DNA from: Candidatus Levyibacteriota bacterium
Lineage (GTDB): Bacteria; Patescibacteriota; Microgenomatia; Levybacterales; UBA12049
NCBI GenBank assembly: GCA_009695045.1
Contig: SIBS01000002.1
Coordinates: 26,774 to 90,773 of the forward strand
Direction of reading: 5' to 3'
Length of the DNA: 64,000 bases
Shown here: positions 2,213 to 29,555 of the stretch, one piece after another
Layout of the letters: every line of letters begins with the position of its first letter
Position numbering within the stretch: the first letter of the stretch is position 1
The notes under the pieces: generated by a model
Database searches by the model: none
Told to the model about the DNA's origin: nothing
Seen by the model: only the letters and a program-made list of their open reading frames with translations
Made by a program: the position numbers and the translations under genes

Positions 2213-3190
2213 ATGGATAAACAATACAATAAGCTAATTAAGGAGTTCGGAGAAACTAATCTGAAAATAAATGAACCAATGAATGAGCATACATCATTCA
2301 AAATCGGAGGATCAGCTCAATATTATCTAACTGTCGATAAGATAGAAGATTTAATAAAAGCAGTTGTTGTTGCTAATGATTTAAGCATCCCCTATTTAAT
2401 AATTGGGGGAGGAACCAACATGATAGTTTCTGATAATGGTATTAAAGGTCTTGTAATTAAAAATAATTGTCGGGCATTTAAAGTTATAGACAAAAAAGAA
2501 ATTATTGAAAATCAAGAAATAGATGAATCCGAAATATTTATTTATACTGAATCAGGCGCAATTATGAATCTATTAGTTCGTTTTGCAATAGATCAGGGAT
2601 TAAGTGGTTTAGAATATCAACTTGGTCTTCCTGGAACCATAGGTGGAGGGATTTATATGAATTCTAATTTTGCTGGTAAACAAGTATTTGTTGGAAATAA
2701 TGTATATAGTGCTACATTGCTTACAAAAAGTGGGAAATTAAAAGAAGTTAATGATTCATATTTTAATTTTTCTTATGATAGGAGTATTTTACAAGATACT
2801 CATGAAACTATCTTGTCACTTGTTTTACGCTTTATTCCTGAAGATAAAAATATTTTACTTGAGAGAGCAATGGGTGCATTAGAGTATCGTAGATTAAGAA
2901 TGCCCAAGGAAATATCTACTGGCTTTACATATAGAAATATTTCTATTAATCAATCACCAAGAGATATGAGCTCAAATGATATTAAGTCAGCTATTAATTA
3001 TATTGAAGAAGCTGGCTTTGTAGGAAAAAGTATTGGGGATGTTGTGATTCATGAGCATCCTAATTTTATACTGAATATTGGTAATGCTAAGTCAAAAGAT
3101 GTAGTAAAATTATTTGCAATAGTAAAGGAAAAAATTTGGAATAAATTTGGCATACAATTACTTATGGAAACACATATTACCGGTATTTAA
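2213..3190 (+). CDS. murB: UDP-N-acetylenolpyruvoylglucosamine reductase
   Basis: FAD-binding N-terminus (EHTSFKIGGSAQYYL...IIGGGTNMIVSD) is typical of MurB. The gene sits between murC and murA. Confidence 0.85.
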   Translation: MDKQYNKLIKEFGETNLKINEPMNEHTSFKIGGSAQYYLTVDKIEDLIKAVVVANDLSIPYLIIGGGTNMIVSDNGIKGLVIKNNCRAFKVIDKKEIIENQEIDESEIFIYTESGAIMNLLVRFAIDQGLSGLEYQLGLPGTIGGGIYMNSNFAGKQVFVGNNVYSATLLTKSGKLKEVNDSYFNFSYDRSILQDTHETILSLVLRFIPEDKNILLERAMGALEYRRLRMPKEISTGFTYRNISINQSPRDMSSNDIKSAINYIEEAGFVGKSIGDVVIHEHPNFILNIGNAKSKDVVKLFAIVKEKIWNKFGIQLLMETHITGI

Positions 3191-3229
3191 TTTAGCACAT
3201 GAAGATAATTATAATATTATAAATTTTTT

Positions 3230-4570
3230 ATGGATACATTTATAGTTCATGGAGGAAAAAAATTAAAAGGAGAAATTAGCGTATCTGGTGCAAAAAATGT
3301 TGCATTAAAAGTACTAGTTGCCTCATGTCTTACCGCTGATACAGTAATTATTCATAATATTCCTCATATTTCCGAAGTATCTATTATTATAAATATTATA
3401 AAATCACTTGGTGGAATAGTTGATATAGATGGTCATACTGTTAGTATTACTGTTGCTAGTGTTAATAATTTTGAAGTTCCCCTTGATAAGGCGGCTAAAA
3501 GTAGAAGTTCATCTCTGTTTATAGCTGCTTTATTAACTAGATTTGGAGAAGCAATTGTGCCAAATCCAGGTGGATGTCGTATAGGTGCTCGTCCGATAGA
3601 TCGTACAGTAGAAGGATTAAAGATATTGGGAGCTGAAATTGCTTATCATAGTGAGGATGGATATTTTCACGCAAAAATAAAAAATGGAGCCACTCGACTT
3701 CGTGGGTCTATATATAGATTTGATAAAAATTCTCATACCGGTACAGAGACATTAATTATAGCTGCTGTTTTAGCAGAGGGTAGGACAATAATTGAAAATG
3801 CTGCAGCTGAGCCTGAGGTAGATGAGCTCATCAGTCTTCTTGTTGCAATGGGCGCAAGGATTAAGCGAACGGAGTTGCGAACTATTATTATTGATGGTGT
3901 CAAGAAGCTAAATGGAGCAAGTTTTACGATTGGTCCTGATAGAAATGAAGTCATAACACTTGCTATAGCGGGTATTATTACTGGTGGAGATGTGATTATA
4001 AAAAATGTAAAAAAACAAGATATACTCGAATTTATTAAAAAAATTGAAATTGCTGGTGGCGGTTGTGAAATTGTGAAAAATGGAATTAGATTTTTTTCAA
4101 AAGGACCACTTTCTCCAACTGATATTACCACTGCTCCTTTTCCTGGTTTTATGACTGATTGGCAAAGTCCATGGGCAGTTCTTATGACGCAGGCGGAAGG
4201 CATATCCATAATACATGAGTCAGTATATGAATCACGTTTTAGTTATGTTGAAGAACTTAGGAAAATGGGTGCTCAAATAGAATTATTTAATCCAGAGGTA
4301 TTAAATCCACAAAAATTTTATAATTTTAATCTTAATGACGACAAGGAAGATAATTTTCATGCTGCAAAAATTTATGGACCTACAATTCTACATAATAGCA
4401 TAGTAACAATTTCTGATTTAAGAGCAGGAGCAACTATTGTTCTTGCGGCTCTAGCAGCAAAGGGAAAAAGCGTTATTTTCGGAGTAGATCAAATAGATAG
4501 GGGATATGAAAATTTAGAGATTCGTCTTAATCAATTAGGAGCAGATATAATTAGAGAGAAAAATGAATAA
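3230..4570 (+). CDS. murA: UDP-N-acetylglucosamine 1-carboxyvinyltransferase
   Basis: N-terminus (GGKKLKGEISVSGAKNVALKVLVAS), length and EPSP-synthase-like fold signature, with the active-site Cys region (GGCRIGARPIDR). Confidence 0.9.
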   Translation: MDTFIVHGGKKLKGEISVSGAKNVALKVLVASCLTADTVIIHNIPHISEVSIIINIIKSLGGIVDIDGHTVSITVASVNNFEVPLDKAAKSRSSSLFIAALLTRFGEAIVPNPGGCRIGARPIDRTVEGLKILGAEIAYHSEDGYFHAKIKNGATRLRGSIYRFDKNSHTGTETLIIAAVLAEGRTIIENAAAEPEVDELISLLVAMGARIKRTELRTIIIDGVKKLNGASFTIGPDRNEVITLAIAGIITGGDVIIKNVKKQDILEFIKKIEIAGGGCEIVKNGIRFFSKGPLSPTDITTAPFPGFMTDWQSPWAVLMTQAEGISIIHESVYESRFSYVEELRKMGAQIELFNPEVLNPQKFYNFNLNDDKEDNFHAAKIYGPTILHNSIVTISDLRAGATIVLAALAAKGKSVIFGVDQIDRGYENLEIRLNQLGADIIREKNE

Positions 4571-5312
4571 TAAAACTGCTGTAATCATATTGGCTGGAGG
4601 TCGTGGAAAGCGAATGCAGTCAAAAAATATAAATAAAGTAGCACTTTCCGTGGGTAATAGGCCAATGATTGTGCATATTGTTGATCTTTTTGTATCCATT
4701 GGCATAAATATAATAATAGTAGTAATTGGCTATGCTAAAAAATCTGTAATAAATGCACTTATTGATTTTCCAGTTATATTTGCAGAACAAAAAAAGCGCC
4801 TAGGCACAGCACATGCAGTTAAATGTGGCTTAAGGGAGCTTCCGGAAAATATCTCTAATGTATTAGTTTTGCAAGGTGATGATTCTGCATTTTATTCAAA
4901 AAAATTATTGCAATCACTTTTAGAAATACATCTTAAAGATAATGCAGATTTGACTTTTCTCACAATAGAAGTTGATAATCCTTATGGATTGGGTAGAATT
5001 ATTAGAGATAAATCAAATAAAATAATAGCAATTGTTGAAGAAAAAGATGCAAATGATGAGCAAAAAAAGATTAAAGAAATAAATCCAGCTTGCTATGTAT
5101 TTCGAGTAGAATTTTTGAAAAAATATATAAATAAAATTAAAAAAAGTCTTGTCACTAAAGAATATTATTTAACAACCCTTATAGATATAGCAAAGCAAAA
5201 AAATAAAATAATATCTAACGTAATGGGTGGTAATCTAATGTGGCGTGGAATTAATACAAAAGAAGAATTAGCTGAAGCAGAAAGATTATTTTTGCAGAAA
5301 AAAATAATATGA
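4563..5312 (+). CDS. glmU: Sugar-1-phosphate nucleotidyltransferase (GlmU N-terminal, uridyltransferase-like domain) as a separate ORF
   Basis: N-terminal motif AVIILAGGRGKRMQS matches the LAAGxGTRM motif of NDP-sugar pyrophosphorylases. A left-handed beta-helix ORF follows directly, with an ATGA overlap. Confidence 0.7.
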   Translation: MNNKTAVIILAGGRGKRMQSKNINKVALSVGNRPMIVHIVDLFVSIGINIIIVVIGYAKKSVINALIDFPVIFAEQKKRLGTAHAVKCGLRELPENISNVLVLQGDDSAFYSKKLLQSLLEIHLKDNADLTFLTIEVDNPYGLGRIIRDKSNKIIAIVEEKDANDEQKKIKEINPACYVFRVEFLKKYINKIKKSLVTKEYYLTTLIDIAKQKNKIISNVMGGNLMWRGINTKEELAEAERLFLQKKII

Positions 5313-5944
5313 AATTTAATACAGAAAATTATTTTTTACTAGATAATTTTTATTATAAAGATATATTTAATAATATTGAAAATATTTGGGAAGTATTGCC
5401 AAAGCTTGAAGAGTATTTATCGTCTCTATTTATTGATGGAAAAGTTATTGGAAATTATAAAGATAAAAAAAATATTTATATAGGGGAAGGCACAGTTATT
5501 CATGAAGATGTTAATATAGAAGGACCAGTTGTCATTGGAAAAAATTGCCTTATTACGCATGGTTCTTATATTCGATCAGGATGCTTGATTGGCGATAATG
5601 TTCGAATTGGCCATGGCGTGGAAATAAAAAGATCTATATTTCTTAATAACTCAATAGTTGCGCATTTAAATTATATTGGTGATAGTATTATTGGAAATAG
5701 TGTAAATATTGCAGGTGGAGCAATGTTGGCTAATCTCCGTTTTGATAAAAAAGATGTAATACTAAGATATGGAGATAAAATAATTAGTACAGGTCTGCAA
5801 AAATTTGGAGCAATATTGGGTGATAATGTTAGCATAGGTGCTAATGCAGTTCTAAATCCAGGAACATTGCTTGGTAAAAGGGTGATTGTTTATCCGTTAC
5901 AATTTGTGAAAGGTGTTTATATAGAAAATGAGATTATTAGATAG
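5309..5944 (+). CDS. Hexapeptide-repeat (left-handed beta-helix) acyltransferase, GlmU C-terminal acetyltransferase-like domain as a separate ORF
   Basis: Repeated [LIV]-G-x-x-x-x hexapeptides (IGKNCLITHGSYIRSGCLIGDNVRIGHGVEIKRS...IGDSIIGNSVNIAGGAMLAN...LGDNVSIGANAVLNPG). Confidence 0.65.
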   Translation: MKFNTENYFLLDNFYYKDIFNNIENIWEVLPKLEEYLSSLFIDGKVIGNYKDKKNIYIGEGTVIHEDVNIEGPVVIGKNCLITHGSYIRSGCLIGDNVRIGHGVEIKRSIFLNNSIVAHLNYIGDSIIGNSVNIAGGAMLANLRFDKKDVILRYGDKIISTGLQKFGAILGDNVSIGANAVLNPGTLLGKRVIVYPLQFVKGVYIENEIIR

Positions 5945-6431
5945 TGCTAAAAAAATAATGATATTGTTCGATATAGACTATACATTATTTGATACAGAAA
6001 ATTTTAAACAATCAAATCTTAAAAGTCATTTAATCTATCCAGAAGTAAAAGATGTACTTTCAAGTTTAGATAAAATTGCTGTGCTAGGAATATTATCAGA
6101 AGGGGATATTGTTTTTCAAATGAAAAAACTTAAGAGGTGTAAGATTGATAATTTTTTCTCTGATAAACATATACATATTATTTTACAAAAAAATAGTACG
6201 ATGTATGAGATTCTTGATATATATAAAAATAATAGAATATTTATAGTAGATGATAAACTTTCTTTTCTTAGAGAAATTAAATTGTATATGCCTTCACTTT
6301 TTACTATCTGGGTAAAACGAGGGCCATATGCAATGAATAGGCAATCTTTTAATGATTTTACACCAGATGCAGCTATAATAAATCTGACATTTATTAATAA
6401 TATTATTAGAGAAAGAATGGGTGTTAATTAA
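5928..6431 (+). CDS. Small HAD-superfamily hydrolase/phosphatase
   Basis: HAD motif I (FDIDYTLFD, i.e. DxDxT) near the N-terminus and a motif IV-like IVDDK. 167 aa. Confidence 0.55.
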   Translation: MRLLDSAKKIMILFDIDYTLFDTENFKQSNLKSHLIYPEVKDVLSSLDKIAVLGILSEGDIVFQMKKLKRCKIDNFFSDKHIHIILQKNSTMYEILDIYKNNRIFIVDDKLSFLREIKLYMPSLFTIWVKRGPYAMNRQSFNDFTPDAAIINLTFINNIIRERMGVN

Positions 6432-19085: not shown

Positions 19086-19451
19086 TTTTTCTTAGTCCTT
19101 AAATTATTTGTCCCAAAACAACGATATTATTTATTTTCCATTATGTTGGTAAAATTTTAGTAATTAAGGTTTTTAAATTGTAAAAACTAGAAAAAGCATA
19201 TAGAGTTTTTGCATTAAGCATTTTGAATCCAGAAATTTTAAGCTCTACTTTAATCAAGTTAGTCATGTAAGTTCTTGTATGTCCGTTTAGATTTTTTTTA
19301 TTTTTTCTAACCCTTTATTTAAGGGAATAGAAATAATAATGTATCCATTTGGAGTTAACATTTTTCTAATAATTCTTAATATTTTAAAAGTTTATGAAGG
19401 GGATATATACTCCAGCACCTCAACCATTAAAGCTGCATCAAATTATTTTGG

Positions 19452-19676
19452 TTAATACTTCATATTATCAACAGACTTTAATTTAAAAAAATCATCAAAC
19501 TTTTTATTTAAATGTTTTATTGCATTTGGGGAAATATCATTTCCATGTAATTTAATATCTCTTTCTCCATTTTTAATTAATTTTTCAACATATTCATAGC
19601 CTGCGCCTATATCTATTATATTTTTAACGTTTTTAGGAATTAAATTATAGATTATTTTTATTCTATTTTTAGTCAT
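19452..19676 (-). pseudogene. Truncated class I SAM-dependent methyltransferase remnant (N-terminal 74 aa only)
   Basis: Motif I IIDIGAGYEY and motif II acidic residue (LHGNDISPNAI) are present, but the ORF stops after 74 aa. Downstream sequence is full of stops in all frames. Confidence 0.4.
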
Positions 19677-20074
19677 AGGGTCCTCAGGTTAATAATCAGT
19701 ATTGCTATTAATTTTTTTATCCCAAAAAAATTTCAGTATTTAAATCTTTTATTTCAGCACAATATTTATTGTATAAATCTATTAGTTAACTTAATCTATT
19801 TTTTGTGGCGAAAATGTGCCTAAGGCCCTCAACTTTAAATGGATTTTTCTTACATTCAAAACAAATAAAATATTCGTTTTCCTTGAAACATATCAAGCAA
19901 TTCATAAAAATTATATTATCATTAAATGAGTGTGTTGATAAATTTATATTATGAAAATTATTGCATTTCTAAGATAAGTAAATGATTCATTAGGAAAGGA
20001 TCTTAATAAGTTATAAAAAAATGATGGAAATAGGTTATTGACTAATATTTTTATTAGAGATATTCTTATTTATA

Positions 20075-20665
20075 ATGAGTAAATATGTAAAATGGTTTAT
20101 AATAATATTAATTTTTATTTATTTTTTTATATTTTTTGATAAAAATATTTTTCAAAATAATACTGTTATTAGTAGGCCAATAACTGCATCAATTATTCCT
20201 CAATCAAATGATGTTCATTCCCCTGACGGTTCATTTAGCATTGTAATGCAATCAAAGGAAAGCAATAGTGGTTTTTTTACCTACGAATTTTTTATTGAAA
20301 ATATATCTGGAGGTAAAAAAAAATTACTTTTTGCAACCAGTGGAGAGGGTGGAGAATTTTGGATTACTCCAAATGCATGGTCACCAGACAATAATTATAT
20401 ATATATATTGGAAAGAAAAAATAATAAATTAAATGCAATGATTTTTAAATCATCAGGTGAAAGTTTTGCAAATGGTGATGTTTATATTGATACATCGCCA
20501 ATTTTTATTAGTCGTAGAACGGGATATGAAATAGTTGATATAACTGGTTGGGATTCTCCTACGTTATTGCATGTAGTAACAAAAAATCATCAAGATATTG
20601 GTCCTTCTTTTTGGTTTGATGTTCCAAGTAAAACTTTTATGCAATTATATAATCGTTCCCTATAG
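20075..20665 (+). CDS. Hypothetical signal-anchored/exported protein
   Basis: N-terminal hydrophobic anchor (WFIIILIFIYFFIFF), then a beta-rich region with a TolB-like WSPDNNYIY motif. No confident family assignment. Confidence 0.45.
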   Translation: MSKYVKWFIIILIFIYFFIFFDKNIFQNNTVISRPITASIIPQSNDVHSPDGSFSIVMQSKESNSGFFTYEFFIENISGGKKKLLFATSGEGGEFWITPNAWSPDNNYIYILERKNNKLNAMIFKSSGESFANGDVYIDTSPIFISRRTGYEIVDITGWDSPTLLHVVTKNHQDIGPSFWFDVPSKTFMQLYNRSL

Positions 20666-21337
20666 TGTCTTTAGCATTTTTTCAGTAGCTTTTATACTTA
20701 AATCTTCGCCATTATAAATAAATTCAAATATTATTTCATTATTTTTATTATTTTTTATGTAAAGATTTTGTAATTGATTTACCGAACCCTTATCATAGGG
20801 ATTACTATAAATAGATACACTGAATTCGCTTGGAATCTCGGGTATCTTCATAAAATCATGGCGTGTTGGAGCAGTTGCTTCAAGATTAGCATCTTTAGCA
20901 ACCCAATACAGTAGAGATGCTAGATGACAAACTCCATCTCCAGCCAAGTATCCATCAGATTTAAATCCTTCTGATAAATTAAAATGTGAATTGGTCGTTT
21001 TATCTATTTTATTTTGATATTCTGGTAGAACATCATCGTGAAATGCAAAAATTTCATCAGGTTTCAATACCATGCTATACTTAAATGGTTTATTAATTTT
21101 ATCCCAATCAATATTATTTGAATCTATTTTTTTATCAGAAGTATATTTAATTGTAAGGAGAATATTTTCTTTAAAAACATTATTTACAAAAGAATTACCA
21201 TATCTATTATTTAATGAAAAAGTATGAGACGAGATCTCCTTTACTACAAATTGTTTTGGAATAATTTGTTTTACTGGTGATTCAGTAAAAAATGGAATAA
21301 ATAAAAGTGATGCAAATGTCATAATCTTTATAGACAT
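20660..21337 (-). CDS. VanW-like domain exported protein
   Basis: Signal peptide (MSIKIMTFASLLFIPFF); VanW-type motif GYLAGDGVCHLASLLYWVAKDANLE (compare GGGVCQVSTTLYNA). Confidence 0.6.
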   Translation of the reverse strand: MSIKIMTFASLLFIPFFTESPVKQIIPKQFVVKEISSHTFSLNNRYGNSFVNNVFKENILLTIKYTSDKKIDSNNIDWDKINKPFKYSMVLKPDEIFAFHDDVLPEYQNKIDKTTNSHFNLSEGFKSDGYLAGDGVCHLASLLYWVAKDANLEATAPTRHDFMKIPEIPSEFSVSIYSNPYDKGSVNQLQNLYIKNNKNNEIIFEFIYNGEDLSIKATEKMLKTL

Positions 21338-21466
21338 AGTATCCTATAAGATGTAGATTATACTATACTATAAGATTAATGTCAAGTAGTTTTTAAGCTC
21401 ATTTTAATGTTTAGGTACATAAATATCATCATTTACTTTTTAATAATAATGCTATACGCTTGAATC

Positions 21467-22174
21467 ATGCTAAGCATTGGATTAAAATCTGTATCATGGA
21501 CTCGTTCTAGTGTTATTTTATTTTTATTTATAATAGCCTTGATATGGAGAATATTTGTATATGGATTTGATTTTAAAAATAAGTGTGCTAATTCAATCAG
21601 TTGTATAAAAGATATTTCTGGAATATTTCAGATAGGGAAAAAAAATATATTTTTGTCTCGATCTATTACTTCTCTGCCATATGTATCTAATAAAAATAAT
21701 ATACATACTGTGCTTGGCAATACTACTTCAATTGGAGAAAAGCATATATTCATTGATTTAGATACGCAGCAACTTTATGCATATGAGGATAAAATACAGG
21801 TCTATGCTTTTCCTGTATCAACAGGTAAATGGGGCAAGACTCCAACTGGAACTTTTAGGATATGGATTAAAATAAGAAATGCTCATATGGAAGGAGGTTC
21901 TGGGGATGATTATTATAATCTTTATAACGTACCCTATACAATGTTTTTTTCAAATGAAAATGTTGATGCTAGTCTAGGTTTTAGCATTCATGGTGCCTAT
22001 TGGCACAATAATTTTGGTTATCCGATGAGTCATGGATGCATAAATTTACGTCCTGAAGATGCTGAGAAAATTTATGGCTGGGCTGATCCTCCAACACGGG
22101 GAATTTCTACTCATTCAACAACTAAAAATAAAGGAACATTAATTACTATTTATGGTGAGCCTCATATGAATTAA
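21467..22174 (+). CDS. L,D-transpeptidase (YkuD domain), membrane-anchored
   Basis: N-terminal TM; catalytic region HGAYWHNNFGYPMSHGCINL carries the YkuD H...SHGC(I/V)(R/N)L motif. Confidence 0.8.
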   Translation: MLSIGLKSVSWTRSSVILFLFIIALIWRIFVYGFDFKNKCANSISCIKDISGIFQIGKKNIFLSRSITSLPYVSNKNNIHTVLGNTTSIGEKHIFIDLDTQQLYAYEDKIQVYAFPVSTGKWGKTPTGTFRIWIKIRNAHMEGGSGDDYYNLYNVPYTMFFSNENVDASLGFSIHGAYWHNNFGYPMSHGCINLRPEDAEKIYGWADPPTRGISTHSTTKNKGTLITIYGEPHMN

Positions 22175-24789: not shown

Positions 24790-25683
24790 ATGAATAAAAA
24801 AGCAAAATTAAAAAAAAATAAAAATAATTATCTTCGTAATTTAAATTATAATCAAGCAATATTTTTTATATTATTTTTAATTATTATTTATATCTTTAAT
24901 ATAGTTAAAAGTAATATTAATTATTTTAAATCAAAAATTAAGCCTCATATTGCTAAGGGAACAATTGCCTCAGTTAATCAACCCTTATCTAGTATTAGAT
25001 TACCAATTTTTTTATATCATTATGTTGAGTATGTAGCTGATCAAAACGATACTATTCGTAAATCACTTAATATTCAACCATGGGTATTGGAAAAGCAAAT
25101 ACAGACACTTAAAGATGCTGGATATAATTTTATTACTCCTTCTGAGGCAATACAAATGCTTAATGGAAATATCCCACTCGTTATTAAACCAATTATTCTC
25201 TCATTTGATGATGGATATAGGGATTTTTATACTGATGTTTTCCCAATTATTAAAAAAGAAAAAGTAAGAGCAATTGTATACATTGTGCCTGGATTTATCG
25301 ATAAAATAAATTTTATGTTCAGGAATCAGTTAGAGGAAGTTGCTGATAGTTCATTAATAGAAATCGGCGCACATACAGTAAATCATGTTTGGCTTAAGGG
25401 GCTTGAGGCACATCATATTAAGAAAGAGATTGTAGAAAGTAAATTATTGCTAGAGGACTCTATTCATAGAAAAGTTGTATCATTTGCATATCCATATGGG
25501 GCTTTTGATGATCAAATATCAAAAATAGTAAAAGAAGCTGGTTTTACATCTTCAGTATCAACCATCTCTGGAATTGAAGCTACTCACTTAAATAAATTTT
25601 ATCTTTTTAGATTGCGACCCGGTAATCGTATTGGAAAGTCATTAATTGATTGGTTAGATCAATCTGTATTTTATTCATGGTAA
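24790..25683 (+). CDS. Polysaccharide deacetylase (NodB homology / CE4), membrane-anchored
   Basis: N-terminal TM; NodB motifs LSFDDGYRDFYTDVFP (TFDDG-like) and GAHTVNHVWL (H-x-x-x-H). Confidence 0.75.
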   Translation: MNKKAKLKKNKNNYLRNLNYNQAIFFILFLIIIYIFNIVKSNINYFKSKIKPHIAKGTIASVNQPLSSIRLPIFLYHYVEYVADQNDTIRKSLNIQPWVLEKQIQTLKDAGYNFITPSEAIQMLNGNIPLVIKPIILSFDDGYRDFYTDVFPIIKKEKVRAIVYIVPGFIDKINFMFRNQLEEVADSSLIEIGAHTVNHVWLKGLEAHHIKKEIVESKLLLEDSIHRKVVSFAYPYGAFDDQISKIVKEAGFTSSVSTISGIEATHLNKFYLFRLRPGNRIGKSLIDWLDQSVFYSW

Positions 25684-25762
25684 ATTATTTTATAATTTGA
25701 CGATATTTTCCCAAGTAAATTAAATTCTTCCAAAATGGCCATATGAAGCAGTTGATAAATAA

Positions 25763-26667
25763 ATAGGTCTACGTAGATTAAGACCTTTAATAATTCCCTC
25801 CAACGATGTGTCTAAAATTTTACTTACGAAATTATTTATCATATTAGGAGATGATCTTGATGTATTAAAAGTTTCTACTTCTTACATAAGTGTTTTTATG
25901 CTTGCTAAAAAAATACTCCAATAACCCCTGATTTAACAAAAAAATTACATCATTTACTCATGAATAAGATAGAATTTAAATATTTAGGTTAATTTCGCGA
26001 TAACCCCGTCTTCGTTGGGCATCGTACAAAAGAGGAAATTGTTGTAAAACATAATCCTCCATTTCATACTAGGCAAGAGATTGAGACTGCATTAATTGAA
26101 TTATTTGATTAGCTTATGAGTCAAGATGATTTGCATCCATTGATAAAGGCAGGGGTTTTTCATCATCAGTTTGTATCCATGCACCCTTTTTTAGATTGTA
26201 ACGGACGCCTTACTAGGATTCTTACTGAATATTATTTATTATTAAAAAATTATGAAGTTGCTAAATACTTTATACTAGATGATTATTATGATATGGATAG
26301 GCATCTGTATTCCGATAAGTTACATACTGCAGATCAGGGAGATAAAACAACTTGGCTTTAATATTTTTTAGAAGGTATTGGTCACTCCCTAAAGCCTGCA
26401 ATTGCTATAATAAATGAATTGAAAAGATTTAATATGGAAGATATAACTGGAGAGAAAAGAGTGCTTGTAACCAATAGGGAAGAAGAGGTATTGGAGATTG
26501 TAATAAATAAAAAAGCTGTAAAAACTACAGATATACAAGAGAATCTTTCAGTAACCCGTCAACAGGCTCATTCCTTGCTAGCTTCATTAGTTAGGAAAGG
26601 GTTACTTTGTAAGTTTGGAAAGACAAAAAAAAGTTATTATAAATTAGTAACTAAATTAAATAACTAA
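25763..26667 (+). pseudogene. Decayed Fic/Doc-family (AMPylator-like) gene with a C-terminal winged-helix domain, interrupted by several stops and one frameshift
   Basis: From ~25909 to 26667, frame 1 reads ...ITPDLTKKLHHLLMNKIEFKYLG*FRDNPVFVGHRTKEEIVVKHNPPFHTRQEIETALIELFD*LMSQDDLHPLIKAGVFHHQFVSMHPFLDCNGRLTRILTEYYLL...DKTTWL*YFLEGIGHSLKPAIAIINEL...wHTH. The core motif is HPFLDCNGRLTR (canonical HPFx[D/E]GNGRxxR, with G mutated to C). A TAA at 25906, TAA at 25987, TAG at 26107 and TAA at 26359 interrupt one continuous frame. The segment upstream of 25906 is in a different frame. Confidence 0.65.
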
Positions 26668-26750
26668 TAATTCATTCAAAATAAATATCTGATTAATCTA
26701 TCCGTATAGCATACTTGAAGAAAAATTAGGTTTAAGATACAATTGAAGCT

Positions 26751-29555
26751 ATGTTTAAGTCTGTAAATCCGCAAGTAGATTTTCCAAAACAAGAAGAAGA
26801 AATACTTGAATTTTGGAAAAAAAATAAAATATTTGAAAAATCATTAGATAAAGATGCGCCGAATGGAAAATGGACATTTCTTGATGGCCCACCTTTTATT
26901 ACAGGTCTTCCGCATTATGGAACATTACTTGTAAGTATTCCTAAAGATGTTTTTCCTCGATTTTGGACAATGCGTGGATATATGGTAAGACGTGTTTGGG
27001 GATGGGATGTTCACGGATTGCCTGCTGAAAATAAAGTAGAAGTTAAGCTGGGCATTGAACGCAAAAAAGATATAGAAGAAAAGATTGGAATTAAGCAATT
27101 TATAGATGAATGTCGTAATTACGTAAGTGAATCTTCAAGGGAATGGGAATGGTATATTGATCATATCGCAAGATGGGTTGATTTTAAAAATGCTTATAAA
27201 ACAATGGATATTTCCTATATGGAATCTGTGATGTGGGTTTTTAAGCAAATGTATGAAAAAGGATATATATATAAGGGACTTCGTGTCTCTCTATATTGTC
27301 CACATTGCTCAACTCCAATCTCTAATTTTGAAGTTGCAATGGATCCTGACAATTATAAAGAGATTACAGAGGCATCAAATACTTATAAATATCAACTTGT
27401 TGAGAGTAGTGATACCTATTTACTTGCATGGTCAACTACGCCGTGGAATAAATTAGTTACATCAGCTCTTGCTGTAAATTCAAAGTTGGATTATGTTAAG
27501 GTCGAACAAGGTAAAGAAAAATATATCTTGGCAAAATCAAAAATAAAAATTTTAGTAGGTGAATATAAAATTATTCAAGAAATAAGTGGTATTGATCTTA
27601 TTGGTCTCTCCTTTGTGCCACATTATGATTTTTATACCATTGATAGTGATAAAAAAGCATTTATAATTGTTGATGGTGATTTCGTTACTGCGGAAGAAGG
27701 AACTGGAATAGTCACTATAGCGGCTTATGGTGAAGAAGATTTAGTTGTTATGCAAAAAGAAAATATTCAAATAATGCTACATGTTGATGATGAAGGAATG
27801 ATTAAAAAAGAAATTCCAAAATGGAACGGAATGTATTACCTAAAGGTAAATAAATTAGTAAATGAAGATTTAGTAAATAGAGGACTAATGTATAAGGAAG
27901 AAGACTATATTCATAAAATTCCTACGTGCTGGCGATGCCATACTAGGCTTATATACGCTCCTCAAAATGCTTGGTATGTTAATGTTCAAATTCTTAAGGA
28001 TAGGATGAGAAAAAATAACGAAGAAGTAAATTGGTTTCCTAAGCACTTTAAAATGGGTCGTTATTTAAAAAGTTTGGAGTCAGCACCAGATTGGTGTATT
28101 TCAAGAAGTAGGTATTGGGGTTCCCCTGTTCCAGTATGGGAGTGTGAATGCGGAGAGCGAATTGTTCCTGGATCAATTGCTGAGCTAGAAGAATTTTCTG
28201 GTAAAAAAATTACTGATTTACATAAGCCTGAAATTGATCAGATAACAATACTTTGTAATAAATGCAAATCTATTACAAAGAGAGTTCCTGAAGTTTTGGA
28301 TAGTTGGATAGAGGCTGGTTCAGCGTCGTTTGCAGAACGTCATTATCCATTTAATGAAAAGGTTAAATTTGCTGATTTCTTCCCTCCAGATTTTATCACT
28401 GAGTATACGGGACAAATTAGAGCTTGGTTTTATGTTTTACATGTTATATCAACTGCCCTATATGATTCAATGGCATTTAAGAACGTTGTTGTAACTGGTG
28501 TAATACTGGGTACCGATGGTAGAAAGATGAGTAAAAATCTAGGAAATTATCCTGATCCAAAAGAGTTATTACAAAAATATGGTGGCGATGCATTACGCCT
28601 TTACCTTATGGGGAGTCCAGTAATGCATGGGGAAGACATGGTTATTTCTGAAGATCAGTATCGAAATCAGATAAAGAATTTTTTATTAGTTTTATGGAAT
28701 ATATATAATTTTTTTGTTTCATATGCATTAATTGATAAGTGGGAGCCAAGTAATTTTAGCAAAGATAATTTAAATATATTGGATAAATGGATATTATCAA
28801 AGCAACAGGATCTTATTATGGAATTAACAGCTTCCTTAGAGGAATATGATACAATGACGGCAATTAATAAAGCTAAGTTATTTATTGATGATTTTTCAAT
28901 GTGGTATATTCGACGAAGTAGAGAGCGAATAGGTCCAAGTGCAAAATTTATATTAGAAAAAAAATCTTTTTATAATACTTGCTACAAAGTATTAACCACA
29001 TTATGTAAACTATTGGCTCCAATCGCTCCTTTTGTTACTGAGGCGATGTATAAAAATCTTACAAATGAGGAATCCGTGCACTTATCTAATTGGCCTCAGT
29101 ACGAATCTTTATTAAGAGATAAGGGGTTAGAGGAGGAAATGGAACGAGCTCGTAAAATAGTAGAAAGAGCGCATGCTCTTCGTAAAGAGCACTCTATAAA
29201 AGTAAGAATTCCATTAAGGAATCTTAATTATTCTGGTCCATTTAAATTAAGTGAAGAAATTAAATTAATAGTGCTTGATGAAATAAATGTTCTAATTCTA
29301 AATTATTTAGGCAAGACAAATGATTATATTGTATCCGGTGAAATGAATGAAGAAAATCAAGATATTATTGCAGGAAAAGCTAGGGATATTATTCGAAGCA
29401 TTCAAGAGGAGAGAAAAAAATTAGGAACTAGAATTGATGAGGAAGTTGATGTTGTTTTACCAAATTGGCCAATTGAATTAGAAAGTGAGATAAAAAGAAA
29501 AGCATTAATTAAATCACTTTCTAAGGGTGATACACTGACTGTAATTAGATTATGA
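26751..29555 (+). CDS. ileS: Isoleucine--tRNA ligase
   Basis: Class I aaRS; HYGTLL (HIGH-like), KMSKN(LG) KMSKS motif, CP1 editing-domain size, and the WCISRSRYWGSPVP motif typical of IleRS. 934 aa. Confidence 0.9.
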   Translation: MFKSVNPQVDFPKQEEEILEFWKKNKIFEKSLDKDAPNGKWTFLDGPPFITGLPHYGTLLVSIPKDVFPRFWTMRGYMVRRVWGWDVHGLPAENKVEVKLGIERKKDIEEKIGIKQFIDECRNYVSESSREWEWYIDHIARWVDFKNAYKTMDISYMESVMWVFKQMYEKGYIYKGLRVSLYCPHCSTPISNFEVAMDPDNYKEITEASNTYKYQLVESSDTYLLAWSTTPWNKLVTSALAVNSKLDYVKVEQGKEKYILAKSKIKILVGEYKIIQEISGIDLIGLSFVPHYDFYTIDSDKKAFIIVDGDFVTAEEGTGIVTIAAYGEEDLVVMQKENIQIMLHVDDEGMIKKEIPKWNGMYYLKVNKLVNEDLVNRGLMYKEEDYIHKIPTCWRCHTRLIYAPQNAWYVNVQILKDRMRKNNEEVNWFPKHFKMGRYLKSLESAPDWCISRSRYWGSPVPVWECECGERIVPGSIAELEEFSGKKITDLHKPEIDQITILCNKCKSITKRVPEVLDSWIEAGSASFAERHYPFNEKVKFADFFPPDFITEYTGQIRAWFYVLHVISTALYDSMAFKNVVVTGVILGTDGRKMSKNLGNYPDPKELLQKYGGDALRLYLMGSPVMHGEDMVISEDQYRNQIKNFLLVLWNIYNFFVSYALIDKWEPSNFSKDNLNILDKWILSKQQDLIMELTASLEEYDTMTAINKAKLFIDDFSMWYIRRSRERIGPSAKFILEKKSFYNTCYKVLTTLCKLLAPIAPFVTEAMYKNLTNEESVHLSNWPQYESLLRDKGLEEEMERARKIVERAHALRKEHSIKVRIPLRNLNYSGPFKLSEEIKLIVLDEINVLILNYLGKTNDYIVSGEMNEENQDIIAGKARDIIRSIQEERKKLGTRIDEEVDVVLPNWPIELESEIKRKALIKSLSKGDTLTVIRL

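Follow-up and report, generated by a model that had tools for sequence, protein, structure and literature searches.

Abutting remnants of a Fic gene and metK in an uncultured Levybacteria lineage, very probably products of ordinary ongoing gene loss

Class II Fic proteins hold an inhibitory helix with the motif (S/T)xxxE(G/N) on the N-terminal side of the Fic core, and the definition of the class and the architecture shared by its members have been described (PMC3667792, PMC10628234). SoFic (PDB 3EQX/3ZCN), CbFic2 (8CIL), and CccR combine the inhibitory helix with a C-terminal winged helix, intact homologues from the Candidate Phyla Radiation (CPR) combine it with a C-terminal winged-helix-like domain, and metazoan FICD is similar to this type in the core and the inhibitory helix. 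In the present study, we analyzed a relic of such a gene in a 64-kb stretch of DNA (hereafter, the window) from an uncultured Levybacteria lineage of the CPR/Patescibacteria. Positions 25690-26667 of the window very probably represent two abutting pseudogene remnants, one of a Fic gene and one of metK, the gene for S-adenosylmethionine (SAM) synthetase, which were left by ordinary ongoing gene loss. In contrast to SoFic, CbFic2, and CccR, the window copy of Fic has neither the N-terminal domain nor the inhibitory helix, contains Cys in place of the first Gly of its signature motif, and is interrupted by three stop codons as well as a frameshift. The copy is, accordingly, a relic and not an enzyme.

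The Fic remnant lies on the plus strand at 25892-26667 (the start is approximate) and corresponds to approximately residues 88-349 of intact homologues of 345-350 aa, namely, the last ~260 codons. When stop codons were masked as X in the conceptual translation (252 aa), the frame of 25684 from ~25909 to 26667 matched the Fic family of Pfam (PF02661) at 57.4 bits against a gathering cut-off of 24, over profile positions 1-93 of 93. When 5.8 billion protein sequences were searched, 568 matches were obtained. The best 120 of these 568 were 66-75% identical to the query at 92-100% coverage (E ~1e-114 to intact homologues), were mostly 345-350 aa in length, and all contained the Fic Pfam domain; their named sources were mostly CPR bacteria (Roizmanbacteria and Levybacteria). 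Conversely, tblastn with the intact homologue P0002 placed its residues 86-343 at 25873-26646 (E 5e-120). The Pfam score and the family-wide matches indicate that the remnant is genuinely Fic and that its in-frame stops and the substitution in its motif are real. A preliminary description, made from the sequence, had proposed a single frame at ~25909-26667 encoding a Fic domain and a winged-helix domain. The Fic domain was confirmed, whereas the C-terminal domain, a stop-free, winged-helix-like segment at 26473-26643 on the plus strand (residues 187-245 of the 252-aa translation), is represented by sub-threshold Pfam matches only (TrmB at 19.1, FaeA at 19.3, and SoFic-like_C at 13.1 bits against a threshold of 27, and also Penicillinase_R and MarR_2). 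A second copy of Fic was not found in the window.

Translated in the frame of 25684, the remnant reads KNTPITPDLTKKLHHLLMNKIEFKYLG, stop, FRDNPVFVGHRT ... ELFD, stop, LMSQDDLHPLIKAGVFHHQFVSMHPFLDCNGRLTR ... TTWL, stop, YFLEG ... KSYYKLVTKLNN, and ends at its native stop codon at 26665-26667, 83 nt before the start of the downstream IleRS gene. The first in-frame stop, a TAA at 25990-25992 (plus strand) between G and FR, is located at a variable position that is occupied by E, K, or A in other members of the family. The second, a TAG at 26110-26112 (plus strand), replaces an invariant Trp that is present in each of the 115 intact homologues (TGG to TAG), and the third, a TAA at 26359-26361 (plus strand), replaces a Glu conserved in at least 90% of the family within W(L/I)EYFLEG (GAA to TAA). 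Four in-frame stops had been reported previously; the TAA at 26359 was exactly placed, while two others, given as 25987 and 26107, were one codon off. The fourth, a TAA at 25906, did not arise by nonsense substitution; it is a by-product of a frameshift, the loss of one nucleotide from an adjacent run of A (A8 to A7, 25907-25913, plus strand; identical in five assemblies, including the window). The frame of 25685 gives VFMLAKK (25892-25912), that of 25684 continues with NTPITPDL, and the family sequence is ...IFxLAKKxxPIxxDL.... Therefore, there are three nonsense codons and one frameshift.

The Fic signature motif reads HPFLDCNGRLTR (26182-26217, plus strand). The previous observation that the first Gly of GNGR has become Cys was correct: the codon at 26197-26199 is TGT (GGT to TGT), and this Gly likewise shows no variation among the 115 intact homologues. 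Accordingly, the HxFx(D/E)GNGRxxR motif of a catalytically competent AMP-transferase is broken in the window copy, which also has no uninterrupted full-length open reading frame (ORF) with a start codon. In total, the Fic lesions comprise three nonsense codons, one frameshift, the Gly-to-Cys substitution, and the loss of the N-terminal part. The remnant yields no functional product.

The largest lesion is the last of these. The first ~88 Fic codons, with the start codon, the region upstream of it, and the autoinhibitory helix, are gone. No match for residues of P0002 before 86 was detected by tblastn upstream of the remnant, and in none of the six frames of 25500-26000 did a profile of the N-terminal 99 columns of the family score above 1.0 bit. 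The segment at 25763-25890, which was initially read as the N terminus of Fic in another frame, encodes the C terminus of MetK on the minus strand (PF02773, 52.2 bits). We conclude that 25690-26667 consists of two remnants because the metK C terminus lies on the minus strand and homology to the Fic N terminus is absent from every frame. We also considered 25799-25906 on the plus strand as a decayed Fic N terminus, based on 10 identities in 36 ungapped positions and the likeness of DVSKILL to DVTNIIL. However, this candidate was rejected: the profile score was 1.0 bit, and the minus strand of the same segment matches MetK with an E value of 6e-16. The palindrome TAAAATTTTA at 25808-25825 encodes SKIL on both strands, and the plus-strand resemblance to DVTNIIL is, thus, spurious.

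The metK remnant (25693-25890, minus strand) retains the last ~65 codons and was identified by both Pfam and tblastn. It matches S-AdoMet_synt_C (PF02773) at 52.2 bits against a cut-off of 25, over profile positions 77-137 of 138, and is 47% identical to residues 299-368 of the 369-aa MetK of the Levybacteria locus L057 (E 6e-16). A complete MetK consists of an N-terminal, a central, and a C-terminal domain, of which the remnant preserves no more than the final 61 positions of the third, with two in-frame stops. The minus-strand reading is ...LM, stop, EVETFNTSRSSPNMINNFVSKILDTSLEGIIKGLNLRRPIYLSTASYGHFGRI, stop, FTWENIVKL, stop, the last of which is the native stop codon at 25690-25692 (minus strand), 7 nt from the stop codon of the upstream polysaccharide deacetylase gene. 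The in-frame stops are a TAA at 25720-25722 (Glu to stop, minus strand) and a TAA at 25882-25884 (Gln to stop, minus strand), the latter of which is polymorphic among strains. Public gene calls on identical contigs contain a minus-strand ORF of 40-55 aa that is tagged S-AdoMet_synt_C. No other MetK match was found within the window at E<=1. The homology to metK extends to ~25890 and that to Fic begins at ~25892, which places the junction, a putative deletion scar, at 25884-25897.

A frameshift in a homopolymer is a classic site of sequencing error, and the gene may, in principle, be intact in the organism and broken only in the assembly. We regard this explanation as extremely unlikely. At least five samples contained contigs, 17 in total, that encode exactly the IleRS protein found beside the remnants. 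Four of these loci, from four different sequencing runs (L001-L004), were compared with the window in an alignment of 25600-26800, in which L001-L004 and the window all had the same A7 run, three Fic stops, and TGT codon. L002 did not differ from the window over 22.8 kb, whereas L001, L003, and L004 differed at 67, 18, and 9 positions, respectively (over 15-23 kb), and, thus, represent three separate strains. Sense codons at the Fic stop positions, which were initially named as a possible sign of error, were found in none of the four other assemblies. Moreover, the N-terminal ~88 codons are missing altogether, and the metK remnant is found in their place.

Programmed recoding or read-through, with the stops decoded as amino acids, has similarly negligible probability, in agreement with the preliminary description. 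Its only favorable point is that the frame is otherwise readable. However, the three stops stand for different residues (Trp, Glu, and Glu/Lys/Ala), and the 58 long ORFs of the window, which use the standard genetic code, end normally at all three stop codons (TAA in 36, TGA in 12, and TAG in 10). In addition, the only tRNAs within the window are those for Val and Thr, and the remnant has neither a start codon nor an N-terminal domain.

The Fic region appears to be decaying neutrally under relaxed selection, although the power of this comparison is modest. The lesions are reproducible across strains, and the pooled density of single-nucleotide polymorphisms (SNPs) in the remnant region (25684-26750) was 7 per 1,067 nt (6.6/kb), which is at the level of other intergenic sequences (6.7/kb) and not at that of coding sequences (2.6/kb) in the 22.8-kb overlap. 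Four of the four SNPs in the Fic remnant were non-synonymous, and three were located at columns conserved in at least 90% of the family. Polarization identified as derived a Lys in place of Gln in the window and, in L001, a Thr in place of Ala and an Ile in place of Ser. In the metK remnant, the codon at 25882-25884 is TAA in the window and CAA in L001, the latter encoding Gln as in the MetK of L057. This nonsense mutation postdates the separation of the strains, and decay is, therefore, still under way. Every polarizable change, together with the point lesions for which the ancestral codon may be deduced, was from G:C to A:T or T:A.

Inactivation is recent relative to the divergence of the family because the remnant has diverged only slightly further than living members have. 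Among the invariant columns of the family, 2 of 74 are altered (Trp to stop and Gly to Cys). Columns conserved in at least 90% of the family are altered at 8 of 128 in the remnant and at 2.5 +/- 1.8 in intact members, and differences from the family consensus number 63 in the remnant and 53 +/- 7 in intact members. The initial proposal of a recently inactivated AMPylator-type Fic gene undergoing AT-biased decay is supported by these results.

We infer a single event, in which the deletion of at least ~1.2 kb would have taken away ~305 metK codons, ~88 Fic codons, and whatever intervened between them. Ancestral metK (minus strand) and Fic (plus strand) would have been divergent, with both starts lost in the same deletion. 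One deletion is the simplest history because both native 3' ends are kept, both 5' ends are lost, and the remnants meet within a few nt of 25891. Both leftovers would subsequently have been subject to neutral drift, with mutation pressure from GC to AT. In this period, Fic would have lost one nucleotide from the homopolymer and gained three nonsense codons and the substitution of Gly by Cys in the catalytic loop, and the metK tail would have gained two nonsense codons, one of which is still polymorphic. To look for the ancestral arrangement, the adjacent IleRS was scanned against GTDB species genomes and JGI metagenomes, which yielded 164 Levybacteria-like loci, all of which were no more than 69% identical. 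Among these loci, a nearby metK on the minus strand was found in L057 only, ~3.7 kb upstream of IleRS (plus strand) and in the same relative orientation as the window remnant. In L057 (Levybacteria chromosome OY970292.1), metK belongs to an intact methyl-cycle cluster at 2867-6239 on the minus strand, together with genes for a ribokinase/adenosine-kinase-like protein and S-adenosylhomocysteine hydrolase. The neighborhoods of the three closest intact Fic genes were variable, lacked metK, and had no partner gene in common. One of them, L085, has a homologue of the deacetylase (55% identity) ~1 kb away, in a different gene order.

Several results weigh against drift after a single deletion. The intact arrangement was not found in a close relative; none of the 164 IleRS loci had this Fic family upstream. 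L030 alone has a Fic gene upstream of IleRS, and this gene is only 45% identical to P0002 and is on the opposite strand. The putative single deletion and original adjacency of metK and Fic are argued from the abutting remnants themselves. The SNP tests also have low power: there are 7 SNPs, with a Poisson P of ~0.03 against the coding rate, and the ratio of 0 synonymous to 4 non-synonymous changes does not significantly differ from the 22:31 in flanking genes. Furthermore, the expected ratio of nonsense to conserved missense changes is 0.15-0.17, whereas 3 nonsense changes were observed against ~3.5-6 missense changes. This mild excess of nonsense codons may point to a contribution of selection in place of drift alone.

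The last result bears on a different account, in which the deletion unmasked an uninhibited, toxic AMP-transferase, and the frameshift, the stops, and the Gly-to-Cys substitution were fixed as detoxifying mutations and not by drift. Fic proteins of every class become strongly active when this helix is removed or mutated (PMC3667792). An in-frame ATG at 25898-25900 was left after the deletion, the upstream deacetylase gene is encoded on the same strand, no terminator-like site was found between the deacetylase and the remnant in our scan, and read-through transcription with translation from this ATG may have followed. The frameshift comes directly after this ATG, and an invariant catalytic Gly was substituted. 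Moreover, ~0.6-1.0 stops were expected from the missense load at conserved columns, against 3 observed (P roughly 0.02-0.08). However, the baseline that was subtracted to obtain the stop excess is noisy. The metK tail and methyltransferase pseudogenes, to which no argument of toxicity applies, have equal or higher stop densities. We consider selection-driven silencing to be unlikely, and ordinary gene loss followed by neutral decay to be the preferred explanation. If silencing did occur, the locus would be a natural record of the unmasking of a toxin and its rapid subsequent detoxification in a CPR bacterium.

It is also very unlikely that the C-terminal part was partially retained, with the ORF at 26419-26667 (82 aa, TTG start) encoding a small stand-alone DNA-binding protein. 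The 102 stop-free codons after 26361 and the preserved similarity to a winged helix are compatible with retention; however, a stop-free stretch of this length is unremarkable at ~1 stop per 86 codons. Neither a recognizable ribosome-binding site nor a promoter excess was found for this ORF. Within this segment, L001 has Ile in place of a Ser that is conserved in at least 90% of the family, and the window has Lys in place of Thr and Ile in place of Arg at conserved columns.

The intact homologues provide information on the protein from which the remnant derives. They contain STSIEGN (at least 90% conserved) N-terminal to the core, which fits the inhibitory-helix motif, followed by the canonical HPFxDGNGRxxR motif and the C-terminal winged-helix-like domain. 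The ancestor is, by the published definition and as judged from its homologues, a class II Fic protein, while the relic itself falls outside the class because the helix motif is absent. Based on homology to SoFic, CbFic2, CccR, and FICD, the ancestral activity was likely autoinhibited protein AMPylation, and deAMPylation was possibly a further activity. P0002 matched the PDB chains of SoFic, FICD, and 8CIL with E values of 1e-11 to 1e-15, and the alignment with SoFic covers P0002 residues 145-334. The best match of P0002 to a solved structure was PDB 4RGL, a structural genomics entry named 'Filamentation induced by cAMP protein Fic' (E 6.8e-24, residues 2-263); this alignment has low similarity (87.7 bits), takes in the inhibitory region and the motif, and ends before the C-terminal domain. 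The family does not correspond to the class I toxin-antitoxin type (FicT/FicA and VbhT/VbhA); the intact homologues hold the helix in cis. No small gene was conserved beside intact Fic across the three loci examined, the neighbor sequences of which were not scanned for the inhibitory motif.

Conservation within the intact CPR Fic family is unusual: the mean pairwise identity of 115 members is 72%, and 74 of ~260 columns are invariant, values that are possibly inflated because the members were drawn from the best 120 of 568 matches. In contrast, the IleRS of the window is only 60-69% identical to those of many metagenome-assembled genomes (MAGs) of related Candidatus Levybacteria/Levyibacteriota. 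This conservation, together with the variable neighborhoods without a conserved partner, suggests a conserved cellular role for the intact proteins rather than that of a mobile toxin.

The window has a G+C content of ~29% and a coding density of 92%. The two remnants occupy a 1,067-nt gap between the polysaccharide deacetylase gene (24790-25683, plus strand; Pfam PF01522) and the IleRS gene, which flanks the Fic remnant on the 3' side (26751-29555, plus strand). Promoter and terminator scans, a repeat search, and an Rfam search of the remnant region revealed nothing above chance, with no mobile-element ends and no RNA family. Decay in the window is not confined to this gap. Another gap of 989 nt (19086-20074) contains the pseudogene of a class I SAM-dependent methyltransferase at ~19176-19676 on the minus strand (Methyltransf_23 of Pfam, 42.7 bits), which reads NIIDIGAG...FDAALMVEVLEYISP..., has at least four in-frame stops, and shows an intergenic-like strain SNP density of ~6/kb. 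Strain polymorphism had a hotspot at 20338-21789, in which 19 of the 67 differences of L001, many of them non-synonymous, were located within 1.45 kb. The ORFs of this hotspot, an unannotated ORF of 196 aa (20075-20665), a VanW-domain ORF (20660-21337), and a YkuD-domain ORF (21467-22174), may be fast-evolving cell-envelope genes.

These results have consequences for annotation: the 'genes' of 81 and 77 aa annotated at this locus in public assemblies and the minus-strand ORF of 40-55 aa are pseudogene fragments and not proteins. Gene loss is ongoing in this Levybacteria population, and that of the conserved class II Fic gene, of metK, and of the gene for a SAM-dependent methyltransferase is fixed across the four available strains. 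We conclude that the Fic remnant reflects reductive genome evolution of an ordinary kind and does not represent a new system. If the metK of the window was the only copy in the genome, this bacterium would not synthesize SAM and, similar to most Rickettsia, would have to obtain it from a host or the environment. A CPR episymbiont would then have a concrete dependency that is open to testing.

Similar decay has been described in other reduced bacteria. In MAGs of Parcubacteria, which also belong to the CPR, pseudogenes account for ~5-10% of genes and have been read as a sign of ongoing genome streamlining (PMC11188291). The window contains at least three pseudogenes among ~60 genes, and their lesions were resolved by hand and across strains, whereas those of the Parcubacteria study were automated Pseudofinder calls. 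In most Rickettsia species, metK has become a pseudogene, and SAM is imported through EamA (PMC5615194). The metK of Rickettsia is, thus, likewise decaying in a reduced, host-dependent bacterium, while that of the present lineage, known from the 64-kb window, has been reduced to its last ~65 codons.

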